Source: Chloroflexota bacterium
GTDB taxonomy: Bacteria > Chloroflexota > Dehalococcoidia > Lucifugimonadales > JADFKI01
DNA: 64,000 nucleotides
Direction of reading: 5' to 3'
Assembly (NCBI GenBank): GCA_009840355.1
Contig: VXNZ01000050.1
Span: forward strand, 33,099 to 97,098
Made by a program: the position numbers and the translations under genes. Positions 7,990-63,983 of this stretch are shown here, piece after piece (positions within the stretch are counted from its first letter, which is position 1; the number at the start of each line of letters is the position of its first letter). The notes below the pieces were generated by a model. The model had not been told where the DNA came from. It was given only the letters and a program-made list of their open reading frames with translations, and searched no databases.

Positions 7990-8046
7990 GCTAAAGGCTC
8001 TTTGTCAGTCTATCCTATCTATCGTGTCCATCCTGTATATCCGTAA

Positions 8047-8184
8047 GATGATTTCACGAATCCCTAATGTTGTCATTCCGAACGCAGTGAGGAATCCAAA
8101 ATCGTTGTATGCGAACCTGTTTCCAACGCTAGATTTCTCGCTTCGCTCGAAATGACAGGGGTAAATTGCATTTGTGAGATCGTC
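8047..8184. repeat. Nested inverted-repeat (MITE-like) element, copy 1
   Basis: Outer arms GATGATTTCACGAATCC / GACGATCTCACAAATGC (reverse complement). Inner arms GTCATTCCGAACGCAGTGAGGAATC and AGATTTCTCGCTTCGCTCGAAATGAC are near reverse complements of each other. The same family occurs at 9572-9808 and 59019-59108. Confidence 0.7.
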
Positions 8185-9412: not shown

Positions 9413-9571
9413 TTTATTCTTCTCCTGGGACAGTTGTTGAAAAGTAAGGGTGCTGCGGGACTGGCTGCTCCGTTAGGGATGGCGCAATTATGGCATAATC
9501 GGCGCTCTTCGCCGCCATCCTAGTCCTAGCCTAGCCCCATCGATTCATCTCAAGCCTTGCTCTTTATCTGA

Positions 9572-9808
9572 GACGATTTCACAAATCCTTAATGTTGTCA
9601 TTCCGCGCTATTTTTGTCATTCCGCGCTGTCTTTATAATTCCGCGCCTTTTCTTGTCATTCCGAACGCAGTGAGGAATCTGAAGCATGTCCCTGCGAAGG
9701 CAGGGATCGTCGCATGCAAACCTGTTTCCGACTTTAGATTTCTCGCTTTCGCTCGAAATGACAGGTATAAATCGCAAATGACAAGAAAAATTGCATTTGC
9801 GAAATCGG
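9572..9808. repeat. Nested inverted-repeat (MITE-like) element, copy 2 (expanded)
   Basis: Same outer arm (GACGATTTCACAAATCC ... CGATTTCGCAAATGCAA reverse complement) and same inner arms as copy 1. It also carries three partial tandem copies of GTCATTCCGCGC (9597-9660) and an internal hairpin GTCCCTGCGAAGGCAGGGAT. Confidence 0.7.
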
Positions 9809-11725: not shown

Positions 11726-12697
11726 CTATCGAGAAGGCACGATGCGTTCGCCGTCATCGAGTGGCGCGAACGATGTGAGTTTCGTGAATGCGCGGAAGCG
11801 GCCTTCGATGTCTTGCATCGTGAGCGTGCGCACCCTGTCCGAGCTGAAGTCTTGCACGCAGAACGAGCCCATGACCGAGCCGAGCACGGTGGCACGGCGG
11901 TAACCTGCGGGCGTCGTGTCGCCGGTGGCTGCGATATAACCTACGAAGCCGGAAGCGAATGTGTCGCCCGCGCCGGTGGGATCGACAACATGGTCGAGCG
12001 GATACGCCGGCGCGGAGAAAACGTCATCGCCCATGTCAGTGCGGCCCAAGTCAGTGCGATTGAACACCAGCACGCCGTGCGCGCCGCGCTTCACCACGAC
12101 CACGCCGGGACCCATCGCCATAATGCGCCGCGCCGCGAGCACAAGGTTGCCTTCCTGCGCGTAGTCGCGCGCCTCGCCTTCGTCCATGAACAGCACATCG
12201 GCGCTGCTGACTATCTTGTCGAGCGAATCGCGCTTGGAATCTATCCAGAAGTTCATGGAATCAAGGGCGACGAGTTGGGGACGCCGTTCCATCTGTTGCA
12301 GAACGTCGAGTTGCAGTTCAGGGTCGATATTGGCGAGGAACAGGTACGGGCATTGGCGCTGTTCGGCGCTGAGATTGGGCGAGAAATCTGCGAACACGTT
12401 CAGCTGCGTGTCCAGCGTATCGCGCGCGTTGAGGTCTGCGCCGTAGTATTCGCCTGCCCAGCGGAATGTGCTGCCCGCCACTCTCCGCAAGCCGCTGACA
12501 TCGACGCCGCGAGAGCGCATCGCTTCGACATCCTTGTCCTGAAAGTCATCGCCAACAACAGCGACCACGCTGACGGGCGCGAACCGGCTGATGCCGATGG
12601 AGAAGTACATAGCAGACCCGCCGAGCGAAGTCTCACGGCTGGCAACCGGCGTTTTCACGGAGTCGTAGGCGACCGAGCCGACGACGAGTACGGTCAT
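11726..12697 (-). CDS. PfkB-family carbohydrate/nucleoside kinase (adenosine kinase suggested by context)
   Basis: PfkB signature DPTGAGDTFASGF near the C-terminus and a glycine-rich N-terminus. It lies directly upstream of ahcY on the same strand. Confidence 0.8.
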   Translation of the reverse strand: MTVLVVGSVAYDSVKTPVASRETSLGGSAMYFSIGISRFAPVSVVAVVGDDFQDKDVEAMRSRGVDVSGLRRVAGSTFRWAGEYYGADLNARDTLDTQLNVFADFSPNLSAEQRQCPYLFLANIDPELQLDVLQQMERRPQLVALDSMNFWIDSKRDSLDKIVSSADVLFMDEGEARDYAQEGNLVLAARRIMAMGPGVVVVKRGAHGVLVFNRTDLGRTDMGDDVFSAPAYPLDHVVDPTGAGDTFASGFVGYIAATGDTTPAGYRRATVLGSVMGSFCVQDFSSDRVRTLTMQDIEGRFRAFTKLTSFAPLDDGERIVPSR

Positions 12698-18220: not shown

Positions 18221-19372
18221 ATGCAAATCACTGACATTACGGCGCACCTTGTGCATCCGGGCAAGGCGAAAAACCTGTGTTTCGTGAAGATTGACACGGA
18301 CGAGGGCATACATGGCTGGGGAGAGTGCTACACGCAGTCCGACCGCGACACACAGATTGTCGCGCATGTGGAGCAGCTCAAGCGCTACCTCATCGGGCGC
18401 GACCCCACTAACATCAAGCACTTCATGCAGATGGCATTCGACGACTTTGCCGGCAGGCGCGGCGCGATGGACTACTACTGCGCCATCAGCGGCCTCGAGC
18501 ACGCCATGTGGGACATCGCGGGCAAGGCTTATGGCGCGCCCGTGCATAAGCTCATCGGCGGCGCGTGTCGAGATAAGATTCGCGTCTATGCCAACGGCTG
18601 GTCCGGCGGCAACCCCACGCCCGAATCGCTCGCCGAGCGCGCATCCGAGGTCATAGAAGCAGGCTTCACCGCGCTCAAGTTCGACCCCATACCCGGACGC
18701 TGGCGCACATTTGTCGGCAAGGAAGTGGAAGACGCAGCCGTGGCGAATGTGCGCGCCGTCCGCGAAGCCGTAGGTCCCGATGTGGACATACTCGTTGAGA
18801 TGCACCGCCGACTCGCGCCCATGCACGCCGTCCGCATCGCCCACGAGATCGAGCAGTACCGCCCGTTCTGGTACGAAGAACCCGTGCTCGCCGAGAACAT
18901 CCCCGCGCTCGCCTCCGTGCGCCAGAAGATAAACATCCCCGTCGTGACCGGCGAGGAGCTTTACACCAAGTTCGAGTTCCGCGAGGTCTTCGAGAAGCAG
19001 GCGGCAGACATCCTCAACCCCGATGTCTGCAACGTCGGTGGCATCCTAGAACTCAAGGAAATCGCGGCAATGGCAGAGCCATACTTCGTCGTCATCTCGC
19101 CGCACAACTTCAACAGCACCACCGTCGGCTTGGCAGCAACCATACAAGTCTCAGCAGCCATACCCAACTTCCTCATAACCGAATACTTCGTCAACCTCGA
19201 AGACCTCGGCAACGACATCGCCAAGAACCCCTTCGAGGTCAAAGACGGCTACATCCAACTGCCCGATACCCCCGGACTAGGCATAGACCTAGACGAAGAG
19301 CGCCTCGCCGCCTATCCATACAAGCCCTTCCCGCCGCGCTCGCCCGCCCAAATCTGGGACGAGGGACCATAA
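18221..19372 (+). CDS. Enolase-superfamily (mandelate racemase/muconate lactonizing, galactonate-dehydratase-like) enzyme
   Basis: N-terminal capping domain pattern (KIDTDEGIHGWGEC), a LKFDP-type barrel strand, and VEMHRRL / WYEEP metal-ligand contexts. Confidence 0.85.
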   Translation: MQITDITAHLVHPGKAKNLCFVKIDTDEGIHGWGECYTQSDRDTQIVAHVEQLKRYLIGRDPTNIKHFMQMAFDDFAGRRGAMDYYCAISGLEHAMWDIAGKAYGAPVHKLIGGACRDKIRVYANGWSGGNPTPESLAERASEVIEAGFTALKFDPIPGRWRTFVGKEVEDAAVANVRAVREAVGPDVDILVEMHRRLAPMHAVRIAHEIEQYRPFWYEEPVLAENIPALASVRQKINIPVVTGEELYTKFEFREVFEKQAADILNPDVCNVGGILELKEIAAMAEPYFVVISPHNFNSTTVGLAATIQVSAAIPNFLITEYFVNLEDLGNDIAKNPFEVKDGYIQLPDTPGLGIDLDEERLAAYPYKPFPPRSPAQIWDEGP

Positions 19373-19411: not shown

Positions 19412-19448
19412 CCTTCCCCCTCGATGGGGGAAGGTTAGGATGGGGGTG
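19412..19448. repeat. REP-like hairpin element
   Basis: CCTTCCCCC-TCGAT-GGGGGAAGG followed by TTAGGATGGGGGTG. Confidence 0.7.
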
Positions 19449-26027: not shown

Positions 26028-26077
26028 TGCAAGCCTCCTTACATATCCAACAGCACATATCCAACAGCGTCTTTCGA

Positions 26078-27124
26078 TTATCCATCCTGTTCATCGCTGT
26101 TAAATTTCTCCAGCCCAAACGCTTCTGCGACCAATTCATACGACCGCACTCTGTCCGCGAAATCGTAGCATATCGTTACGACGCCGATGTCGTTGGTGTC
26201 GTAGGCGTACGCGAGCGCCTCTATCTTGTCGCGCACATACTCGGGCGTGCCGTCGATGTAGCTTTCCTTTAGCTTCGACAGATACGCCCATTCGTCGGGA
26301 CGGTATTCGTATGCGAGCGCCTCTTCGATGGGCGGCACGCCTTCGCGGATGTTCTGCACCGAGCGCACTCGCGACAGATTGCGGCTCGCGCCGATTCGCT
26401 GCGCATCCTCGTCCGTCTCGGCGCACAATACCTGCAGCGCGACATTCACCTTCGGCTCGGACAGATACTCGGACGGCTGGAAGTTCTGCCGATACATCTC
26501 GGCGATCGCCGGTCCGTGCTCTGTCGCCAGGCCGAAGAAGTGCGCGAAACTGAACGGCAAGCCCATCTCGGCTGCCATCGCCGCGCTGTCCGCACGCGAG
26601 CCGAGCAGCCACACATCGGGCGTGGTGAACTCGCCGGGACCGGCGTGCAGCGACGCGAAGGGATGCTCGCCGTCCACCGTGTCGTGCAGAAAGTTCAGCA
26701 GATCGCGCACGACGACCGGGTAGTGGCGCACATCGAGTTGCGGACGCGGATACGACAGCGCTGCCGCCGTAATCTGGTCGCTGCCCGGCGCGCGCCCAAT
26801 GCCGAGGTCTATCCTGCCGGGGAAGAGCGTCTCCAACATACGGAACACCTCGGCGACCTTGAACGCGCTGTAGTGTGGCAGCATCACGCCGCCGCTGCCT
26901 ACGCGAATGCTCTCCGTGTTCGCGGCAATCTGCCCGATGAGGATTTCCGGGCTAGTCCCGGCGAAGTTCGCCAAGTTGTGGTGCTCCGCCACCCAGAAGC
27001 GCCGGTAGCCCAGCCGCTCGACGGCGCGCGCCAGCTCGACGGTTTCCGTCAGCGCGTCTCGCGCCGTGCCGCCCTTCCGCACCGGCGACTGGTCCACGAC
27101 ACTGAGTTGTATATTGCTGCTCAA
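26078..27124 (-). CDS. LLM-class (luciferase-like) flavin-dependent oxidoreductase
   Basis: ELARAVERLGYRRFWVAEHHN and GSGGVMLPHYS. The last 7 codons (NSDEQDG) are encoded by a dispersed GGATGG-type repeat. Confidence 0.9.
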   Translation of the reverse strand: MSSNIQLSVVDQSPVRKGGTARDALTETVELARAVERLGYRRFWVAEHHNLANFAGTSPEILIGQIAANTESIRVGSGGVMLPHYSAFKVAEVFRMLETLFPGRIDLGIGRAPGSDQITAAALSYPRPQLDVRHYPVVVRDLLNFLHDTVDGEHPFASLHAGPGEFTTPDVWLLGSRADSAAMAAEMGLPFSFAHFFGLATEHGPAIAEMYRQNFQPSEYLSEPKVNVALQVLCAETDEDAQRIGASRNLSRVRSVQNIREGVPPIEEALAYEYRPDEWAYLSKLKESYIDGTPEYVRDKIEALAYAYDTNDIGVVTICYDFADRVRSYELVAEAFGLEKFNSDEQDG

Positions 27125-27268
27125 TATTGCACCTTATTTCTCAGGTTGTACGGGCCTGCATCGCGCACGGTTCATCCCTCATCCTGCTCGTTCTGCCCAT
27201 CCTGTCCATCGATGTTAATTCCCCGCCCTATCGGGGCATTGGCAGGCATGGAAAGAGACCTATATGCG

Positions 27269-36856: not shown

Positions 36857-36892
36857 TCCCTTTCCTCTAAGGGGGAAGGTTAGGAAAGGGGC
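36857..36892. repeat. REP-like hairpin element (variant)
   Basis: CCCTTTCCTCTAAGGGGGAAGGTTAGGAAAGGGGC. Confidence 0.6.
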
Positions 36893-36916
36893 ATTGTATG
36901 CATTATGCCATCTTCG

Positions 36917-41871: not shown

Positions 41872-41987
41872 CCACTGACGACTGACATACGGCGGCATCG
41901 CGCCGACCGGGGACATCGCCGGCGCCTTGCGCTGATGAAGATACGACTTCGTAGAACGCGCGCCCTTATCGGCATTTTCAGACTACC

Positions 41988-42022
41988 TCACCCATCCTAA
42001 CCTTCCCCTTAATGGCGAAGAA
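41988..42022. repeat. REP-like element, reverse orientation (degenerate)
   Basis: CACCCATCCTAACCTTCCCCTTAATGGCGAAG is the reverse complement of the family consensus. Confidence 0.55.
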
Positions 42023-42070
42023 ACTTATACTCCGCGACCCACCCCGTATATCCGAGCAAGTAATAATTCC

Positions 42071-45909: not shown

Positions 45910-46230
45910 ATGCTTAAGAAGGTAAGAGCAAGATACTCCGAAGGCTCGCTCACGCCGCTCACGCCGCTCGACCTGTCCGAAGGCGAAATCGTGTCGCTGA
46001 CCGTCGAGGTGGAATCGAAACTCTCTAAGGAAGAGCGTGCCGAGAAAGTGAAGCCTGCTGCGGACGTGTGGACAGAACAAGAAGACCTCGAAAGAATCAG
46101 GCGCGCAGTGAACGGTCCTAAGCTTTCTACAGATGAGTGGCTTGAAAAGGTACGCAAGCGCAGAGTTGCGTCCCGAACGCGGATTACGGCAGATGAAATC
46201 ATTGAAATGCGCGACGCGGACCGCACATGA
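45910..46230 (+). CDS. Antitoxin (DUF104/AF2212-like N-terminus) of the VapBC-type pair
   Basis: RYSEGSLTPLTPLDLSEGEIVSLTVE matches the DUF104 pattern. The stop overlaps the vapC start by 4 nt. Confidence 0.6.
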   Translation: MLKKVRARYSEGSLTPLTPLDLSEGEIVSLTVEVESKLSKEERAEKVKPAADVWTEQEDLERIRRAVNGPKLSTDEWLEKVRKRRVASRTRITADEIIEMRDADRT

Positions 46231-46622
46231 CTGCCGTCGCCGATTCTTCCGCGCTGGTCGCGTCTGTGGTGGACCACGGCAGCGACACTAGATGGGTAGA
46301 TGCCGCCTTTGCAGGCGAAGACTTAGCTTGTCCGGAACTGGCGCTTGCGGAAGCCAGCAACATCTTGCGTCGGATGGAACTCGCCGGGCAACTATCGTAC
46401 ACAGAAGCGACGGCTGCCTATACTGAACTGTTCGATATCGACATTGTTCTGTATCCCTTCACCCCATTCGCCGAGCGGATATGGCAGTTGCGGAATAATC
46501 TGACAATCTACGACGCATGGTTTGTTGCGTTGGCAGAGGCACTCGATTGCCCGCTTGTTACACTTGACCGCAGGCTCAGTCGTGCGCCAGGTCCAACCTG
46601 CGCTATCTTATCCCCTGACTAA
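46227..46622 (+). CDS. vapC: PIN-domain toxin
   Basis: N-terminal acidic residue context AVADSSALV, later YDAWFVALAE and LVTLDRRL (PIN conserved Asp positions). Confidence 0.8.
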   Translation: MTAVADSSALVASVVDHGSDTRWVDAAFAGEDLACPELALAEASNILRRMELAGQLSYTEATAAYTELFDIDIVLYPFTPFAERIWQLRNNLTIYDAWFVALAEALDCPLVTLDRRLSRAPGPTCAILSPD

Positions 46623-46674: not shown

Positions 46675-46729
46675 AGACTAATCGCCCGTCTATCCCATGT
46701 ATCAATGCCGGTTTCAGGAGATTTCACCC

Positions 46730-49700
46730 ATGTTCAATCCCGTCGATACCAAGACCGATTTCACTGCTATGGAACGCGACATCCTCGACTGGTGGGAGCG
46801 CAACGACATCCCGACCAAGTATATGCAGCGCAATTCCGGCGCCGATAAGACTCATTCGTTTATCGACGGGCCCATCACCGCCAACAATCCTATGGGCGTT
46901 CATCACGCCTGGGGCAGATCCTACAAGGACATCTTCCTGCGTTTTCGCGCTATGCAGGGCTACGACCAGCGCTATCAGAACGGCTTCGACGGGCAAGGGC
47001 TTTGGATCGAAGTCGAAGTGGAAAAGGAACTCGGCTTCAAGTCCAAACGCGACATCGAAGCGTTCGGCGTCGGCAAGTTCGTGGATATGTGCAAGCAGCG
47101 CGTTGACCGCTTCGCCGACATCATCTCGCAGCAGAGCATCCGGCTCGGCTATTGGATGGACTGGGACGATTCGTATCACACCAAGTCCGACGAGAATAAC
47201 TACACCATCTGGCACTTCCTGAAGACTTGCCACCGGAAGGGCTGGCTGTACGAAGGGCGCGATGTTATGCCGTGGTGCCCTCGCTGCGGCACGGGTCTGT
47301 CCGAGCACGAAATCGTAACCGAAGGCTACAAGGAAATCGTACACCCCGGTCTGTTCGTCAAGTTCCCCCTCATAAATGTCCCTTCCCCCTCGATGAGTGA
47401 AGGTCAGGATGGGAGTGAAGAAAGCAAAGAATCCTTGCTGGTCTGGACGACCACGCCTTGGACGCTCACCGCGAACGCCGCCGCCGCCGTACATCCCGAA
47501 AAGACCTACATCAAGGTGCGGCAGGGCGACGATACACTGTATCTCATCAAAGAACGCGCGTCCGTGCTGAAGGGCGACTACGAAGTGCTGGGCGAACTGC
47601 CGGCAAGCGAACTTGTCGGCGCGCGATACCGGGCGCCGTTCGGGGAATTGCCCGTGCAGGAAGGTGTTGAACACCGCGTCGTCGCGTGGGACGAGGTGAG
47701 CGAGAGCGAAGGCACGGGCATCGTGCACATCGCGCCGGGCGCCGGTAAGGAAGACTTCGAGCTGGGCAATGAGAACGGCATCCCCGCCATCGCGCCGTTG
47801 GACGAATACGGAGATTTCGTGGACGGCTTCGACTGGCTGACCGGACGGAATGTCTATGACACGAACGACGCCATCTACGACAGCCTCAAGGCCAAGGGCG
47901 TCTTCTACAATCTGGAACGATATTCGCACCGCTACCCGGTCTGCTGGCGCTGCGATTCGGAGCTGGTCTTCCGGCTGGTGGACGAATGGTTCATCAGCAT
48001 GGGCGAAAAGCACGACAAGCCCCGCGAAGAACTGACCGGCGCGGAAAAGGCGGACAGCCTGCGCTACCAGATTATGGATGTGGTGGACGATATCCGCTGG
48101 GTGCCGGAGTTCGGCTACGCGCGCGAACTCGACTGGCTGCGCAACATGGATGACTGGATGATCTCCAAGAAGCGCTACTATGGCTTAGCGCTGCCCATCT
48201 ACAAATGCGCCGAGTGCGGCTGGTTCGATGTCATCGGCAGCGAGACTGAGCTGCAATGTCGCGCCGTAGAAGGCTGGGATGAATTCGCCGGCAACTCGCC
48301 GCACCGCCCTTGGGTTGATTCGGTGAAGATTCGCTGCGACAAGTGCGGCGCAACCGTTAGCCGCATCGAAGATGTTGGCAACGCCTGGCTGGACGCGGGC
48401 ATCGTGTCGTTCTCCACTATCCAGTATCGCCACGACCAGGAATACTGGCGCAAGTGGTTCCCCGCCGACTGGATTTCTGAGAGTTTCCCCGGACAGTTCC
48501 GCAACTGGTTTTACTCTCTGCTCACGATGAGCACAGTGCTGGAAAACACTGCACCGTTCAAGTCGGTCTTCAGCTACGCCCTGATGCGCGACGACAAGGG
48601 CGAGGAGATGCATAAGAGCAAGGGTAACGCCATCTGGTTCGAGGACGCCGCCGAGCGCATGGGCGTCGACGCGATGCGCTGGGTGTTCCTGCGCCAAAAT
48701 CCCGCGCTCAACATCAACTTCGGCTTCCGTTCCGCCGACGAAGTGCGCCGCCGCTTCATCATCCCGCTGTGGAATGTCTATTCGTTCTTCGTAACATACG
48801 CGAACATCGACCGCTACGATGCCACGGCAACGCCGCCGCCGGTGTCGGAGCGCGCCGAATTAGACCGTTGGATACTGTCCGAGCTGAACCAGCTTGTCAG
48901 GGAAGTAACGGACGCGTTCGAGAACTTCGATCCGGATAGGGCGGCGCGCCATGTCGAGGGCTTCGTCGAATACCTGTCGAACTGGTATGTACGCCGCAGC
49001 CGCCGCCGCTTCTGGAAGGCGGGAATCCTCGCCGAGAACGCGGACGCCGACAAGCACGGCGCATACGCCACGCTGTACGAATGCTTGCTCACGCTGATAA
49101 AGCTCATCGCGCCGGTGACGCCGTTCATGACCGAGCAGATGTATGGCAATCTGACGAATGGGCAAAGTAAAGAAAGTGTCCATCTGGACGACTTCCCTGT
49201 CGCGGATGAATCGCTGATAGATGAAAGCCTGTCACGCGCAACCCGTATGATAATGCAGCTCTCAAGCATGGGACGCGCTGCGCGGCAGAAGGCGGGCATC
49301 AAGGTGCGCCAGCCCGTGCAGACGATGAAGGTGCTGGTGTCCGGCGAGTCCGACAAAGCGACGGTGGAGGCGCTGTCCGACCAGCTCAGGGAGGAGCTGA
49401 ATGTCAAGGATGTAGAGGTAATCTACGACAGCGAAGGCATGGGAGACATACACTTCTGGGACTGGAAAGTATCGCCGAACATGCGAGTCCTGGGACCGAA
49501 GTACGGGCCGCGCCTGCGCGAGATTACCGAAGGGCTGACAGAAATGGACCCGCGCGAGGTCGTAACCAAACTGCGGCAGCGCGAAAAAGTCGTCATCCCG
49601 CCAAAGGACGTATCGCTACCCCGAATAGAGTTGGGCGCATCCGAGGAAGAGATAGTTCGAATGTCTGAAGACGCTCCTCAGACCGCTACTTATGTCTTCA

Positions 49701-50101
49701 CGAAAGGACCCGATGACCCCGTACTGAGTTCCGGGCTGTTCGACATTTTAGAAGAAAGAATCGCTCCAGAAGGCTTTGCGGCAGAAGAAGACAGGGCATA
49801 CTCGGTCGCGCTGTCGACGGAAATTACACCAGACCTGCGCCTCGAAGGCGACGCCCGCGAGCTTGTGCACGGCATTCAGAACATGCGCCGCTCCGCCGAC
49901 TTCGACATAGCCGATCACATCGTCACGTACTACGAGAGCAGCCCGGAACTCCACGCCGTAATCGCGGCGCACGGCGACTATATCCGGCAGGAGACGCTGT
50001 CGCAGGAGCTGGTGAGCCAGTTGCCCGCCGATGACGCCTACACCGAGACGCTGAAGGTGAATAGCATACAGGCAACCATCGGAGTGCGGCGGGCTGGATA
50101 G
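46730..50101 (+). CDS. ileS: Isoleucine--tRNA ligase (long, type-2-like)
   Basis: PMGVHHAWG (HIGH-type), WTTTPWTL (editing-domain entry) and KMHKSKGN (KMSKS-type). The start is set at the ATG at 46730, preceded by CAGGAG. Confidence 0.95.
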   Translation: MFNPVDTKTDFTAMERDILDWWERNDIPTKYMQRNSGADKTHSFIDGPITANNPMGVHHAWGRSYKDIFLRFRAMQGYDQRYQNGFDGQGLWIEVEVEKELGFKSKRDIEAFGVGKFVDMCKQRVDRFADIISQQSIRLGYWMDWDDSYHTKSDENNYTIWHFLKTCHRKGWLYEGRDVMPWCPRCGTGLSEHEIVTEGYKEIVHPGLFVKFPLINVPSPSMSEGQDGSEESKESLLVWTTTPWTLTANAAAAVHPEKTYIKVRQGDDTLYLIKERASVLKGDYEVLGELPASELVGARYRAPFGELPVQEGVEHRVVAWDEVSESEGTGIVHIAPGAGKEDFELGNENGIPAIAPLDEYGDFVDGFDWLTGRNVYDTNDAIYDSLKAKGVFYNLERYSHRYPVCWRCDSELVFRLVDEWFISMGEKHDKPREELTGAEKADSLRYQIMDVVDDIRWVPEFGYARELDWLRNMDDWMISKKRYYGLALPIYKCAECGWFDVIGSETELQCRAVEGWDEFAGNSPHRPWVDSVKIRCDKCGATVSRIEDVGNAWLDAGIVSFSTIQYRHDQEYWRKWFPADWISESFPGQFRNWFYSLLTMSTVLENTAPFKSVFSYALMRDDKGEEMHKSKGNAIWFEDAAERMGVDAMRWVFLRQNPALNINFGFRSADEVRRRFIIPLWNVYSFFVTYANIDRYDATATPPPVSERAELDRWILSELNQLVREVTDAFENFDPDRAARHVEGFVEYLSNWYVRRSRRRFWKAGILAENADADKHGAYATLYECLLTLIKLIAPVTPFMTEQMYGNLTNGQSKESVHLDDFPVADESLIDESLSRATRMIMQLSSMGRAARQKAGIKVRQPVQTMKVLVSGESDKATVEALSDQLREELNVKDVEVIYDSEGMGDIHFWDWKVSPNMRVLGPKYGPRLREITEGLTEMDPREVVTKLRQREKVVIPPKDVSLPRIELGASEEEIVRMSEDAPQTATYVFTKGPDDPVLSSGLFDILEERIAPEGFAAEEDRAYSVALSTEITPDLRLEGDARELVHGIQNMRRSADFDIADHIVTYYESSPELHAVIAAHGDYIRQETLSQELVSQLPADDAYTETLKVNSIQATIGVRRAG
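47381..47418. repeat. REP-like element copy embedded in frame inside ileS
   Basis: CCTTCCCCCTCGATGAGTGAAGGTCAGGATGGGAGTGA versus the intergenic copy CCTTCCCCCTCGATGGGGGAAGGTTAGGATGGGGGTGT (19412-19448): ~5 mismatches over 38 nt. It encodes PSPSMSEGQDGSE. Confidence 0.7.
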
Positions 50102-50490: not shown

Positions 50491-50874
50491 ATGGCTAACA
50501 AGCTTGGCATACCCATTGACGACATTTTCCGGGAACGCGCGCAATGGGACCCTGTATATCGTGCAATGATGCTCCCAAGCGCAATCGACCTTCTTCTCTC
50601 CGATGATGTCAGAGTCGGGAAAATCGCACTACACTCTTGCATCTACTCCACCATCGGCTACGAAAAGCTTGGCGAGCTTATGGGCAAGACGCCCGACGAC
50701 ATCAAGCGCATGTGCCATCCCGACCACGACACAAGCGTGAACGACCTCTTCGACATAATCAAGCATATCCGGCAGCACGAAGGCATTCGCCTCGAAGTAA
50801 AGGGATGCTCTAGCGAGCAGGACTGCGAATCCGTTGCTCACGACGAGCCTGCCGAAACTGTCGCTGCTACATAA
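50491..50874 (+). CDS. Putative addiction-module antidote protein (HTH)
   Basis: Position 3 nt after the killer gene. IGYEKLGELMGKTPDDIKRM is HTH-like and is followed by GIRLEV. Moderate resemblance only. Confidence 0.55.
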   Translation: MANKLGIPIDDIFRERAQWDPVYRAMMLPSAIDLLLSDDVRVGKIALHSCIYSTIGYEKLGELMGKTPDDIKRMCHPDHDTSVNDLFDIIKHIRQHEGIRLEVKGCSSEQDCESVAHDEPAETVAAT

Positions 50875-50876
50875 TT

Positions 50877-50956
50877 CCTTCCCCCTTGACGGGGGAAGGT
50901 TAGGATGGGGGTGACGAACATCCCCTCTCCCGGAAGGAGAGGCTTAGGGTGAGGGC
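50877..50956. repeat. Two adjacent REP-like hairpin elements
   Basis: CCTTCCCCC-TTGAC-GGGGGAAGGTTAGGATGGGGGTG, then the variant CCCCTCTCCC-GGAA-GGAGAGGCTTAGGGTGAGGG. Confidence 0.7.
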
Positions 50957-54599: not shown

Positions 54600-56075
54600 T
54601 TACGCTAGGTCGATGTTGTATTGCAAGCCTGTGTGCGTCGCCGTGCCGCGCGATCCGCTGCGCTCCGCCAGCGCGTGCCGGAAGCTCACCGTCACGACCG
54701 TCTGGCGTTTCTGCGTGTCGCGGTCAACGTCTATCATCAGCTGCCGGCGGAAGCCCTGCGCCCACTGCGTGCGGTTCACCAGCAGCAGACGACCCTTTGT
54801 GTTCGTCGCCGCGCCGTCCGTAATCTTGCCGTCCGCGTCCGCGAGCGCCATCTGCTCGGACACGATGACCGGTATGCCCTCGACCGCGCCCAGCATGCCC
54901 GTAAGCAGCGTGGCGTTCGGTCCGAGCTTGTCCATCGTCCTGAACTGCTCCACCGACTGCGCGCGGATGAAAGTGTTCACATCCATAACCCACGCCAACT
55001 GCGACGGGCGCGCGCCGTACTTGCCCAGCTTCGTCCGCAGCTCGTTGAACATATCATCCGACACGGCTGCGTTGTGATTGTTCGCCTGCGATGTGTTGTC
55101 CACCAGCGGCAGATGAATGATGCCGTCGTAGCCCACCAGCCAGTGCGCCTTGCCCGAAGTGCTCGCCGAAATCGTCGCGCCGTCCGTGTTGATGCCGTTC
55201 GTCTTGGTTCTGTCCGCATTCAGGATGATGTCGTCCAGTACCTCCGCGACATTGCGCACCAGACTAGCGCGAATCTCCGGCAGCATCGCGATAACGCCGT
55301 CCTCTTCCAGCGTGAAACTGTACGGCACCTGCCCGACAAGCTCGAACGCGGTCAGCGTTGTCCTGCCGGTGGCGAGCGCGGTGTCCGTGCTCGCCGTGTT
55401 CTCCGTGCCGGGGAAGAAGTTCACATCGCCGAGCTGACGCGGCACTTCAAACGGGTTAGACGGCATCGGGAATGTCGGCACGAGCGGCGCGACAAGCGTC
55501 TGCAAGTTCACATCCTGCCACAGTTCGCGCGCTTCGAGCGTTGCCACCAGTTCGTCGCCGCTGCCTGCGGTCGTGCTGTCCATCGCCGCGCGTGTCATTG
55601 CGCCCAGCAGCTGACGGCTGAAGCCCTGAAACTGCCCGGTGTCTTTCGAGTCCACGCTGAACCAGCGTTCGAGCTGCCGCTCCGCCGCCGTGTGCGACGC
55701 CTGTATGTCCGATGACGTGATACTCGCCGCAAGCAGCCGCTTCGCCTCTTCCGCGCGCTCGATCCAAGCGGGACCGAAGCCTTCGCGCCGCTGCGAATGC
55801 GCGAACCGCCGCACCAGCGCCAAATCCAGAATGTCCATGCCCGCGTAAGCGCCCGACGGCACGGTGGGCAGCGCGGCATCCTGCGCGTAGCCGCTCAGCG
55901 CATTGCGCCGGACGCTGCGCTCGCGCTCGACCGCCGAGTTCACCGTCCGCGCGATGCGCTCCGTCTCTTCGCGCAGCAGCCCAATCTCGCCGCTCACCGG
56001 CTCGAACCGCTCGCGCACGAACGAATTGATGTCCGCTAAGTCCTTCTTGATTCCCTGAATGTCCGTAGTCGTCAT
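54600..56075 (-). CDS. HK97-family phage major capsid protein (with N-terminal delta/scaffold-like segment)
   Basis: An internal ATG at 56075 is preceded by GGGAGG. MTTTDIQGIKKDLADINSFVRERFE is a coiled-coil delta-domain-like start. The remaining ~400 aa has the HK97 MCP length and pattern (FPMPSNPFEVPR...GTENTAST...). Confidence 0.75.
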   Translation of the reverse strand: MTTTDIQGIKKDLADINSFVRERFEPVSGEIGLLREETERIARTVNSAVERERSVRRNALSGYAQDAALPTVPSGAYAGMDILDLALVRRFAHSQRREGFGPAWIERAEEAKRLLAASITSSDIQASHTAAERQLERWFSVDSKDTGQFQGFSRQLLGAMTRAAMDSTTAGSGDELVATLEARELWQDVNLQTLVAPLVPTFPMPSNPFEVPRQLGDVNFFPGTENTASTDTALATGRTTLTAFELVGQVPYSFTLEEDGVIAMLPEIRASLVRNVAEVLDDIILNADRTKTNGINTDGATISASTSGKAHWLVGYDGIIHLPLVDNTSQANNHNAAVSDDMFNELRTKLGKYGARPSQLAWVMDVNTFIRAQSVEQFRTMDKLGPNATLLTGMLGAVEGIPVIVSEQMALADADGKITDGAATNTKGRLLLVNRTQWAQGFRRQLMIDVDRDTQKRQTVVTVSFRHALAERSGSRGTATHTGLQYNIDLA

Positions 56076-56714
56076 CCCAATCCTCCCTTTCTCATCCACT
56101 CCGTTAAATCCCTTCCCCCTTGATAGGGGAAGGTTAGGATGGGGGTGATAGTCTTCCCCATCCCATCCATCCATGTCAGTTCCGTCCTCTATCAGCGAAT
56201 CGAGCATTCTCCGGTGAGTCTCGCGCAGCGCGTCCGGGTCTGCCGGCACGGACACGATTGACCATTCCAGCAGTTCCGCCCGCACATCCCGCACGCCGCC
56301 TTGCTTGGCGGGTACGCTCTCCGTGGGCAGCCAGCTTATCGACGCCGCTTGCAGAAAACCCTTGTCCCATGCGTTCCGTATGCGCTGCGCGAACGGGTCG
56401 TCCTCCAGGAACTCGAACTCCGCCACGATACCGCCGTCCTCAGCGCGGCTGATGTTCAGCGTTCTGCCGATGGGCAGCCCGCCGGACGGCGACCGCCCCG
56501 TCGAATCGTGCGCCCACATCACCACCGGATTGCGGCGATAATTGTCGAACCGCAGCCCCGCAAGGTCTATCTCCGGCGCCGTCCGCGCTCTATCGTTCGC
56601 CGCGATGACCACACTGCGCCGAGTGTCGTCCATCGCGTCACGCCGCACGATGCTCATGCTCATCGACCGAATCCTATCTTCCATCCATAACCTCCGTTCT
56701 CTCCGTCCCATCAC
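56076..56714 (-). CDS. HK97-family prohead protease domain. It has no stop codon of its own and the frame continues through repeat DNA into the capsid gene (track ORF 54600..56714).
   Basis: NPVVMWAHD...GLPIGR and EWSIVSVPADPDA, typical of S78/U35 prohead proteases. Residues DMDGWDGEDYHPHPNLPLSRGKG are translated intergenic-type repeats. Confidence 0.7.
56111..56146. repeat. REP-like hairpin element lying in frame between the protease and capsid segments
   Basis: CCTTCCCCC-TTGATA-GGGGAAGGTTAGGATGGGGGTG. Confidence 0.7.
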
Positions 56715-58927: not shown

Positions 58928-59018
58928 ACGAATCACCACGAATACCGTAGCGAAGAGTCTGCCAAGTGCACCGTTTCGTTTTGGGCTGCCTAGGCAGCGT
59001 TGACATTTCGCCATTTCC

Positions 59019-59108
59019 CTGTCATTTCGAGTGAAGCGAGAAATCTAAAGTCGTGAACCGGCTTACGCGCAATGATTTTAGATTCCTCACTGCGTTCGGA
59101 ATGACAGG
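59019..59108. repeat. Nested inverted-repeat (MITE-like) element, copy 3, reverse orientation
   Basis: GTCATTTCGAGTGAAGCGAGAAATCT ... GATTCCTCACTGCGTTCGGAATGAC is the reverse complement of the layout at 8047-8184. Confidence 0.7.
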
Positions 59109-59228
59109 ATAAAGTCGGGAATGACATGACAAATGGTGTGGCATGGCAGAATAGATTTGATTTTCAAGTCCGAAACGCTTCATTAACCAAATGTCAACAG
59201 AACCTAGTATGACAGGGAAGGTTGACTG

Positions 59229-63682: not shown

Positions 63683-63930
63683 CGTTGACCTCCTACCGCC
63701 GGTACGAGGGTACCGGCCCGGACACTATCTCGAAACACCGCTACGGGAATACACGGCAAAATGCGGCACAGCCGCACGTCAGTCGCCTGTCCGCAATTAT
63801 ATGGCATGCAAGTTAAACACCGCAACGCGCGGCGATGCAGTCCGACTTGTTCATACAACCGGACAATTCATAATAATAAGGCGCGCGCTCCGGTGGCATC
63901 TGCGTTGTGCCGCGAAGATTAGCGGATTCG

Positions 63931-63983
63931 CCCACATCCTAACCTTCCCCGTCTAGCCTTCCCTATCAAAGCGTGAAGGGGCT
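63931..63983. repeat. REP-like element, reverse orientation (degenerate)
   Basis: CCCACATCCTAACCTTCCCCGTCTAGCCTTCCC...GAAGGGGC. Confidence 0.5.

Follow-up and report, generated by a model that had tools for sequence, protein, structure and literature searches.

Repetitive extragenic palindromic (REP) sequences, bacterial interspersed mosaic elements (BIMEs) and REP doublets forming hairpins (REPINs) are dispersed GC-rich palindromes of 20–40 nt, which are mobilised by REP-associated tyrosine transposases (RAYTs) and are by definition extragenic. Holder et al. (2015, Nucleic Acids Research; PMC4666352), who cite earlier triplex-motif work by Hoyne et al., described intrastrand triplex motifs that consist of a C-arm of 9 nt, a loop of 3–6 nt, a G-arm of 9 nt, a loop of 3 nt and another G-arm of 9 nt, with a consensus of 37 nt and a second loop TTA in type A. 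Their TMECO family is abundant, highly conserved and always intergenic in Escherichia coli K-12, where it is linked with local genomic instability, and its intramolecular triplex was demonstrated by circular dichroism (CD), nuclear magnetic resonance (NMR) and footprinting (PMC4666352). According to the account given in PMC10969869, the Rickettsia palindromic elements (RPEs; Ogata et al., 2000, Science; 2002, Genome Research) are selfish palindromes of about 100–150 bp with their own conserved peptide, located in frame in unrelated, often housekeeping genes; nearly half of the copies are intragenic, and the added peptide is compatible with the fold and function of the protein. Here we analyze a stretch of 64,000 nt (the window) from contig VXNZ01000050.1 of a Chloroflexota bacterium of the class Dehalococcoidia (assembly GCA_009840355.1), in which a short dispersed repeat that we named TM1 is translated in frame within ileS, the gene for the essential isoleucyl-tRNA synthetase (IleRS). 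New in this analysis are the assignment of the repeat to the triplex-motif type, the recognition of its site in ileS as a recurrent, recombining hotspot across the SAR202 lineages, and the finding that only stop-free, hydrophilic frames survive there.

The repeat within ileS

The features on which the analysis turns are the following.

46697–50101, forward strand: ileS, encoding a type-2-like IleRS, an intact open reading frame (ORF) of 1134 aa (Pfam tRNA-synt_1, Anticodon_1 and DUF5915)
47375–47428, forward strand: the whole segment N227–K244 of IleRS (NVPSPSMSEGQDGSEESK, 54 nt), derived according to the ortholog comparison
47381–47417, forward strand: decayed TM1 copy in ileS, translated as PSPSMSEGQDGS(E), with C-arm CCTTCCCCC, first G-arm (G1) GAGTGAAGG, loop 2 TCA and second G-arm (G2) GGATGGGAG
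19412–19448, forward strand: canonical intergenic TM1, 40 nt past the stop of an enolase-superfamily gene (18221–19372)

The ileS copy reads CCTTCCCCCTCGATGAGTGAAGGTCAGGATGGGAGTG and is identical to the intergenic copy at 19412–19448 at 33 of 37 positions. These 4 mismatches in 37 correspond to 5 in 38, the distance that an earlier note on this DNA, made from the sequence letters, had estimated for 47381–47418. Under a uniform model, the chance expectation for a match with at most 4 mismatches over 128,000 positions is 3.8e-11. In the ileS frame the repeat is translated as PSPSMSEGQDGSE, directly preceding ...ESLLVWTTTPWTL.

The closest IleRS sequences (80–90% identity) come from metagenome-assembled genomes (MAGs) of Dehalococcoidia and the SAR202 cluster. 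The loci compared below carry numbers preceded by L; all of them were picked through ileS and therefore form a biased sample. The site, between FP(L/I)x and ESLLVWTTTPWT, was readable in 71 of 80 Dehalococcoidia/SAR202 genome loci, about 55 of which have a turn of 4–5 residues (DRDGE, DREGE, DEDA, DSDDN or DSDDNE), and among 120 protein homologues 54 have at most nine residues between FP and LLVW. Because most Dehalococcoidia/SAR202 orthologs have the 4–5-residue turn, the 18-residue segment N227–K244 is derived. It takes the place of an ancestral turn of about 5 codons and makes the gene 39 nt (13 codons) longer, and its 54 nt contain the usual flanks of TM1, AT-rich sequence with GTC on the 5′ side and TGAA.. 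on the 3′ side. The proposal of the earlier note that a repeat had inserted in frame and been retained at the protein surface, as a loop adding about 13 residues, was borne out: most orthologs lack it, including sisters about 96–97% identical, and AlphaFold puts it at a low-confidence hairpin tip. Nor did the ortholog alignment show the same peptide in orthologs lacking the repeat family.

All class-I motifs are present in the window IleRS, whose closest solved relatives in a HMMER search are the Thermus thermophilus enzyme (1ILE) and the type-2 IleRS of Priestia megaterium (8C8W, 8C9D, 8C8V and 8C8U). AlphaFold2, given an alignment of 52 sequences, produced a model with a mean predicted local distance difference test score (pLDDT) of 75 and a predicted template-modeling score (pTM) of 0.60, and Foldseek finds it closest to the type-2 structures 8C8V and 8C9D. 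In the model, strands 211–226 and 244–251 (pLDDT about 80) are joined by a coil whose pLDDT is below 50 at residues 233–241 (44 for the insert), and in the HMMER alignment with 1ILE the extra residues of the insert lie opposite gaps in a shorter K-E-P-K-K-L-G-L-E-K-A loop. The isolated construct of the connective peptide 1 (CP1) domain, 1WK8, starts at query residue 210; therefore, the insert site is the tip of the N-terminal β-hairpin of the editing domain. The insert ends five residues ahead of the Thr-rich editing motif WTTTPWT, which is at the far end of the strand. As modeled, the site is consistent with a tolerated surface loop.

Besides the insert, the gene and its surroundings vary in other ways. 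Translation of ileS probably starts at M12 (46730), since MFNPV is the beginning of most homologues; the listed ORF extends 11 codons (46697–46729) beyond this start, and L001 has the same upstream extension. In the C-terminal DUF5915 region (window 49595–49740, IleRS residues about 967–1015) there are two allelic forms among IleRS sequences 80–90% identical. The long form, found in the window, has some 45–50 extra residues with pLDDT below 50 at 994–1013, the short form reads GNPVAVNGVVLEPDEVLV, and the two divide the tree into two clades. Immediately upstream of ileS (45910–46622, forward strand) are small AF2212-like and PIN-domain (toxin–antitoxin type) gene pairs, assigned by synteny, of which there are one or two in L161–L168; L163 also carries ParE/RelB.

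Architecture of the repeat family

Judged by its arms, TM1 is better described as a repeat of the intrastrand triplex-motif type than as a classic REP. Its layout is 9/5/9/3/9, that is, a C-rich arm, N5, a G-rich arm that is the Watson–Crick partner of the first, the loop TTA and a second G-rich arm in mirror order, with the core CCTTCCCCC-N5-GGGGGAAGG-TTA-GGATGGGGG. The third arm mirrors the second, with one A paired with T, as in a purine-motif triplex. It is this three-arm structure that groups TM1 with the triplex-motif repeats; "REP-like", the label given to it in the earlier note, was a fair first description that does not capture the three-arm layout.

We reached the work of Holder et al. 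through a text search with the sister sequence AGGGTTAGGGTGAGGG. A rule-based scan, which allowed at most one mismatch in the Watson–Crick hairpin and at most one in a mirror arm restricted to the triads G·G, A·A and T·A, returned 50 distinct motifs from 2.6 Mb of Dehalococcoidia DNA and 0 from five second-order Markov simulations. The arms co-vary across the families, as in CCTTCCCCC/GGGGGAAGG/GGATGGGGG, CCCTCTCCC/GGGAGAGGG/GGGTGAGGG and TCCCCCCCT/AGGGGGGGA/AGGGGGGGT. The family with the CCTTCCCCC arm (TM1) accounts for 22 copies in the scan and that with CCCTCTCCC, which fits the TMECO pattern, for 13; several families are rarer. The arms of TM1 itself do not fit that pattern (CCCTCNCCC N3-6 GGGNGAGGG N3 GGGNGAGGG), which only the sister family does. 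Because CCTTCCCCC/GGGGGAAGG/GGATGGGGG lie outside the published pattern, TM1 is a triplex-motif repeat in its architecture but no TMECO element proper.

Rfam at its gathering thresholds has no family for the repeat, and a literature search combining SAR202 with REP returned nothing relevant. The sole Rfam match in the window at the gathering threshold is a SAM-I riboswitch (RF00162, 13353–13468, reverse strand, 76.5 bits).

Copies in the window and their placement

Besides the two copies listed above, we found the following copies and associated elements in the window.

50877–50913, forward strand: canonical intergenic TM1, 3 nt after the stop of the ORF 50491–50874, two genes downstream of ileS
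50922–50955, forward strand: sister-family, TMECO-like element CCCCTCTCCC-GGAA-GGAGAGG-CTTA-GGGTGAGGG, adjoining the TM1 at 50877
56111–56147, forward strand: TM1 in the linker of a fusion ORF, with minus-strand translation HPHPNLPLSRGKG
54600–56714, reverse strand: the fusion ORF, 704 aa, of prophage type, a fused head-maturation protease and major capsid protein that hosts this second in-frame TM1
36857–36893, forward strand: degenerate intergenic TM1 with an indel, 13 nt past the stop of a major facilitator superfamily (MFS) transporter gene
41987–42023, reverse strand: degenerate TM1 without the C-arm, intergenic, upstream of speE
63929–63965, reverse strand: degenerate TM1 near the end of the window

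A Hamming scan of both strands of the 64-kb window found no other 37-mers within 10 mismatches of the repeat, and 100 dinucleotide shuffles gave 0 matches to it. Compared with 19412, there are 2 mismatches in the copy at 50877 and 2 in that at 56111; the copy at 36857, which the earlier note had named together with them, is the degenerate one with the indel. Mismatches in the hairpin arm number 0 at 19412 and 50877, 1 at 56111 and 2 in the window ileS copy; there are 0 in the ileS copies of L001, L161, L178, L002, L009 and L163. Across all the fetched loci nearly all copies are between genes or at gene ends, and outside ileS only 1 of about 40 motif hits in the 2.6 Mb is clearly intragenic, namely the one in the window phage ORF. 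Most copies are thus intergenic, the exceptions being those in ileS and the one in the phage ORF.

The TM1 pattern is also matched exactly in nine contigs of the viral collection IMG/VR (L169–L177), with three matches in L173; some are in long GC-rich open frames, and their contexts are ambiguous. The window contains other repeats as well. A dispersed family with the core TGTCATTCCGAACGCAGTGAGGAATC is found at 8046–8160, 9571–9748 and 59012–59122, with arms of up to 90 nt and 83% complementarity between 8071–8160 and 59017–59106. Intergenic heptad-like repeats CATCCTGTCCATCC (on the other strand, ACAGGATGG) are located at 8003, 15156, 26057–26105, 27172–27220, 33755, 35392, 53650 and 56154, among others; the 3′ end of the luciferase-like monooxygenase ORF 26078–27124 (reverse strand), with its final codons and stop, is overlapped by one of these repeats, and the tail of the protein is ...EKFNSDEQDG followed by the stop. 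It is this different, heptad-type repeat that the suggestion of the earlier note on the last 7 codons of the gene (26078–26100) concerns. A related heptad tandem constitutes the ileS insert of L166.

The site among relatives

The state of the ileS site was counted over the 73 closest sequences.

Short turn: 36 of 73
TM1 forward (xVPSPSMGEGQDGGExxK, the window type; peptide PSPSMGEGQDGG): 12 of 73
TM1 reverse complement (HPHPNLPPSRGKGQEE; peptide HPHPNLPPSRGKG): 10 of 73
Heptad-repeat insert (GVRCQEGEG...): 4 of 73
Insert encoding ATGRSP: 3 of 73
Other long segments: 8 of 73

At the DNA level, the forward TM1 in ileS is perfect in L001 and L178 and has one third-arm mismatch in L161, while an exact reverse-complement TM1 is present in L002, L009 and L163. 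The site holds a perfect 28-nt palindrome, GTAGGGGCGACCGGCCGGTCGCCCCTAC, in L168, the heptad tandem (CAGGGAT)2(CAGGTGT)2 in L166, and several nested elements in L011 and L179. Other triplex-motif families were found at the same position in L010 (66% IleRS identity), L011 and L092 (58%). The last of these, a marine metagenome locus (1057–1365) obtained in a scan of metagenome contigs with IleRS that returned only relatives at most 65% identical, carries at the same hairpin tip a 75-residue insert made of an inverted pair of two other triplex-motif families. Judged by orientation and family, at least seven apparently independent events would have taken place at this site.

The site is polymorphic for presence and absence between sisters that are otherwise nearly identical: the filled and empty loci L161/L162, L163/L164 and L166/L167 share 96.7%, 95.9% and 97.0% of their nucleotides, respectively, and the filled L163 and the empty L164 come from one sample. 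A neighbor-joining (NJ) tree built with the variable regions left out interleaves forward, reverse, empty and other states. At the site, the identity between filled and empty sisters drops to 0.73–0.88 and recovers within a few hundred bases, and around it L161, which is filled, has its higher identity (0.92–0.94) with L001, a distant allele that is filled as well. Moreover, all forward alleles have the same boundaries and loop variants, and the same is true among all reverse alleles. The simplest account of these patterns would be that repeats inserted on a limited number of occasions and then spread by short-tract homologous recombination. The insertion is not confined to this genome: it is one of the alleles at a recombining hotspot that has been hit again and again.

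A second loop of IleRS, after MTEQMYxNLT (residues about 818–826, window 49148–49174), is another hotspot of repeat insertion and is empty in the window. It carries an intact TM1 in L178 (4425–4480), a copy with one stem mismatch in L179 (4375–4430), and heptad-like (xxxTCAG)n together with a 'GSTSSPRT' element in L002 (about 12440–12520), L004 and L011.

Decay of the window copy

Two of the four changes that separate the ileS copy from 19412–19448 fall in the 3′ arm of the hairpin (GGGGGAAGG to GAGTGAAGG), leaving G1 with 2 mismatches to the C-arm; the canonical loop 2 is TTA. The predicted fold of the window copy reaches −12.8 kcal/mol, no better than shuffles (z = −0.57), while comparable stretches of 51–61 nt from intact copies are predicted at about −21 to −24 kcal/mol. 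The hairpin has been lost in the window ileS copy, as had been claimed from those two differences.

Relative to L001, L161 and L178 the window copy has three unique substitutions (GGG to AGT and GGT to AGT). All three are non-synonymous and within G-runs, and together they remove the hairpin and the mirror arm. They also create an exact 8-nt direct repeat, GAGTGAAG, at 47395–47402 and 47411–47418, where the relatives have GGGGGAAG and GGGTGAA(A/G); this repeat could be due to chance, to local slippage or to conversion. Non-synonymous differences from L001 affect 5 of the 18 insert codons of the window and 109 of 1104 codons in the remainder of the gene; constraint on the insert peptide is therefore relaxed. 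The repeat cores of L001, L161 and L178 differ by a single synonymous change, where codons elsewhere are 21–28% synonymously different. This near-invariance fits recent spread by recombination, although conversion or selection acting on the DNA could have produced it too.

Reading frames and a second in-frame copy

The consensus TM1 has a stop in four of its six frames, including the ileS frame, where a TAG lies in loop 2. The only open frames are two reverse ones, with hydrophilicity highest by a wide margin in reverse frame 1 (HPHPNLPPSRGKG), and this is the frame used in the reverse alleles of ileS and in the phage ORF. In the forward ileS frame (PSPxMGEG-stop-DGG) the canonical repeat has its TAG across loop 2, and all the sequenced ileS copies in that frame have had the stop removed. 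The change is TTA to TCA (TAG to CAG) in the window, L001, L161, L178 site 1 and L179 site 2, and TTA to TCG (TAG to CGG) in L178 site 2; the forward copy in L092, which belongs to a different family, has loop-2 TAA changed to TCA. An intergenic copy with a TCA loop exists in L077, so suitable variants are present in the pool. Survival is limited to certain variants in certain frames, whose translations are Gly/Pro/Ser/acidic peptides. The earlier suggestion that the family is compatible with ORFs has to be narrowed accordingly: it applies to certain variants and frames, whereas four of six consensus frames are closed and the forward ileS copies need a stop-removing change.

The phage copy is translated in reverse frame 1 of the repeat, and a second hairpin (GGATGGGG / CCCCATCC) comes after it. 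The N-terminal 190 residues of the ORF match the head-maturation protease phrog_80 and its C-terminal part matches major capsid families; as phrog_617, a profile of 626 positions, spans both parts, the protease–capsid fusion is a known architecture. The syntenic ORF of L165, 93% identical, is also continuous, and its linker is different, shorter and without the repeat-encoded HPHPNLPLSRGKG. Therefore, the window copy is a lineage-specific in-frame insertion in an inter-domain linker, and the in-frame translation first noticed here from the sequence is confirmed.

Origin of the ileS loop

We consider it likely that the loop goes back to the insertion of a selfish repeat that was tolerated in a permissive loop. 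TM1 with short AT-rich flanks would have been incorporated into the coding sequence of ileS at the tip of the β-hairpin by which the Rossmann fold passes into the CP1 editing domain, exchanging a turn of 4–5 residues for a loop of 18 (net +13 codons). It would survive there because the change in length is a multiple of three, because TCA instead of TTA in loop 2 makes TAG into CAG, because the frame encodes a Gly/Pro/Ser/acidic peptide, and because the loop is solvent-exposed and tolerant. Such a four-condition filter would explain why in-frame repeats are found in this loop, in the second IleRS loop and in the phage protease–capsid linker, and why the translations that occur there are limited to the two most hydrophilic ones (PSPxMGEGxDGG forward and HPHPNLPPSRGKG reverse). 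The filled allele, common to other SAR202 lineages, would have been exchanged by short-tract homologous recombination, and in the window lineage three later substitutions would have abolished its potential for hairpin and triplex, leaving a fast-evolving disordered loop with no required function. We infer that the DNA arrived by this route, that the loop is nearly neutral, and that the hotspot reflects tolerance and not targeting.

Several observations weigh against this account. No clean empty-site junction was found in the three pairs of filled and empty sisters, and no target-site duplication, which together with terminal inverted repeats would mark a miniature inverted-repeat transposable element (MITE); in these pairs, divergence and recombination around the site could mask a short duplication. 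In all filled alleles the neighboring codons have changed as well (FPLL CTGCTG to ATAATC, ATATTG or CTCATA), and therefore the event resembles a replacement of the turn by some 50 nt of repeat and flanks more than a simple insertion; the changed codons are AT-rich and resemble the repeat's own flanks (AAAGTC... / ...TGAAAACG). A replacement of this kind could have come about through break repair or template switching. One such route, a template switch primed by microhomology of the FPL codons (TTCCCCCTC in the window) with the C-arm, was set aside because it does not reproduce the complete element with its own 5′ flank and because it would leave a frame that runs into a TGA. That diverged alleles have nearly the same repeat core may point to selection or gene conversion keeping a DNA structure, which would not be pure neutrality, and solvent exposure was deduced from pLDDT and secondary structure alone, in a model with a mean pLDDT of only 75. 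Finally, the at least seven events in one loop contrast with almost no intragenic copies in the roughly 20 kb around each locus. Passive tolerance is not an obvious predictor of such a concentration, and some targeting or local instability may contribute.

This last point leads to a reading in which the hotspot is a property of the DNA: the position in ileS, or a repeat resident there, would attract repeats or provoke breakage and template switching, and selection would keep the in-frame outcomes, producing a hypervariable loop. We regard this as possible but doubtful. It would agree with the elevated rearrangement of DNA flanking triplex motifs among close E. coli strains (Holder et al., PMC4666352), with the nested and adjacent elements of L011, L092 and L179, with the replaced flanking codons and the drop in identity around the site, with the presence of several unrelated repeat families at one position, and with neighboring genes almost devoid of intragenic copies. 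However, the empty sites of distant lineages share no obvious common target beyond the conserved codons, the second IleRS loop and the phage linker were also struck, as a filter of protein tolerance predicts, no transposase or RAYT was found (none was looked for), and every locus was selected via ileS, which biases the sample. Less probable still is a broader version, an integration or mutational hotspot where structured repeats enter, invert, nest and are exchanged, which would provide an essential housekeeping enzyme with a strain-variable peptide loop, with the DNA or mRNA structure or the loop perhaps used by the cell, for example, in co-translational pausing at the domain boundary or in escape from an IleRS-directed inhibitor or toxin.

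That the insert has a function in IleRS, through its peptide (for example, by affecting the hinge motion of CP1, contact with the tRNA, or resistance to a toxin or an inhibitor) or through a structure in mRNA or DNA that makes translation pause where the Rossmann fold meets the editing domain, seems to us improbable. Its position five residues upstream of WTTTPWT, the intact hairpins predicted at about −24 kcal/mol within ileS of L001, L002, L161, L163 and L178, and the smaller number of synonymous changes in the repeat core than in the remaining gene would all be expected of a functional element. On the other hand, close strains have no insert, an unrelated sequence or the opposite orientation, the window copy has lost its structure, and the peptide evolves faster than the remaining protein and is predicted to be disordered. 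As for convergence, in which a G/P-rich loop of IleRS would resemble the repeat by chance, a repeat derived from ileS itself, an assembly artefact or a pseudogene, only the low complexity of the sequence speaks for them. We rejected these explanations, which retain hardly any credibility, as contradicted by the data: the identity of 33/37 against an expectation of about 4e-11, the perfect copies in both orientations in orthologs of independent assemblies, the intergenic dispersal of the family in many Dehalococcoidia whose ileS lacks the repeat, and the intact ORF with all class-I motifs.

The polymorphism of the site for presence, orientation and family among near-identical strains is a natural experiment on how short structured repeats give rise to new peptide segments, on which frames survive, and on whether non-B DNA motifs make genes locally unstable. 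The loop is also a strain-level marker. It calls for caution in annotation and alignment as well, since PSPSMGEGQDGG, HPHPNLPPSRGKG and similar stretches of low complexity in proteins of these phyla derive from repeats.

Comparison with known systems

TM1 resembles the REPs in being short, GC-rich, palindromic and dispersed, often just downstream of genes and sometimes in inverted pairs. It differs from them in its third, mirror arm, which co-varies with the hairpin across families and is not needed by REPs; no RAYT was seen, although none was sought.

Its arm and loop layout, its G·G, A·A and T·A triads, its TTA loop and its length of 37 nt are those of TMECO, and both are multi-copy, highly conserved and mostly intergenic, in either orientation and sometimes in inverted pairs. 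True copies of the TMECO pattern (CCCTCTCCC...GGGAGAGGG...GGGTGAGGG) accompany TM1 in these genomes and, in the window, at 50922–50955. The arms of TM1, however, are CCTTCCCCC/GGGGGAAGG/GGATGGGGG against the published CCCTCNCCC, its triplex is putative, and its hosts are Chloroflexota (SAR202) and not Proteobacteria. Moreover, TM1 is translated inside an essential gene, while TMECO was reported as always intergenic in E. coli K-12. Triplex-motif repeats had previously been reported as strictly intergenic and of unknown function, and here one of them is within an essential aminoacyl-tRNA synthetase.

Among known systems, the Rickettsia palindromic elements are the closest precedent. TM1, like them, is a dispersed repeat located in frame within ORFs that leaves the host ORF intact, both in ileS and in the phage protease–capsid fusion, and the compatibility of the loop with the fold that characterizes RPEs was found in the model of IleRS, where the insert forms a coil (pLDDT below 50) that joins two strands and lies opposite gaps in 1ILE. 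Unlike RPEs, TM1 spans 37–54 nt, has an unrelated sequence, belongs to another lineage, is overwhelmingly intergenic and has a stop in four of six consensus frames; it also recurs at one hotspot, in both orientations and with presence/absence polymorphism. In-frame selfish palindromes in housekeeping genes have been regarded as a peculiarity of Rickettsia, and the ileS alleles described here extend the comparison to the widespread marine and subsurface SAR202 Dehalococcoidia.

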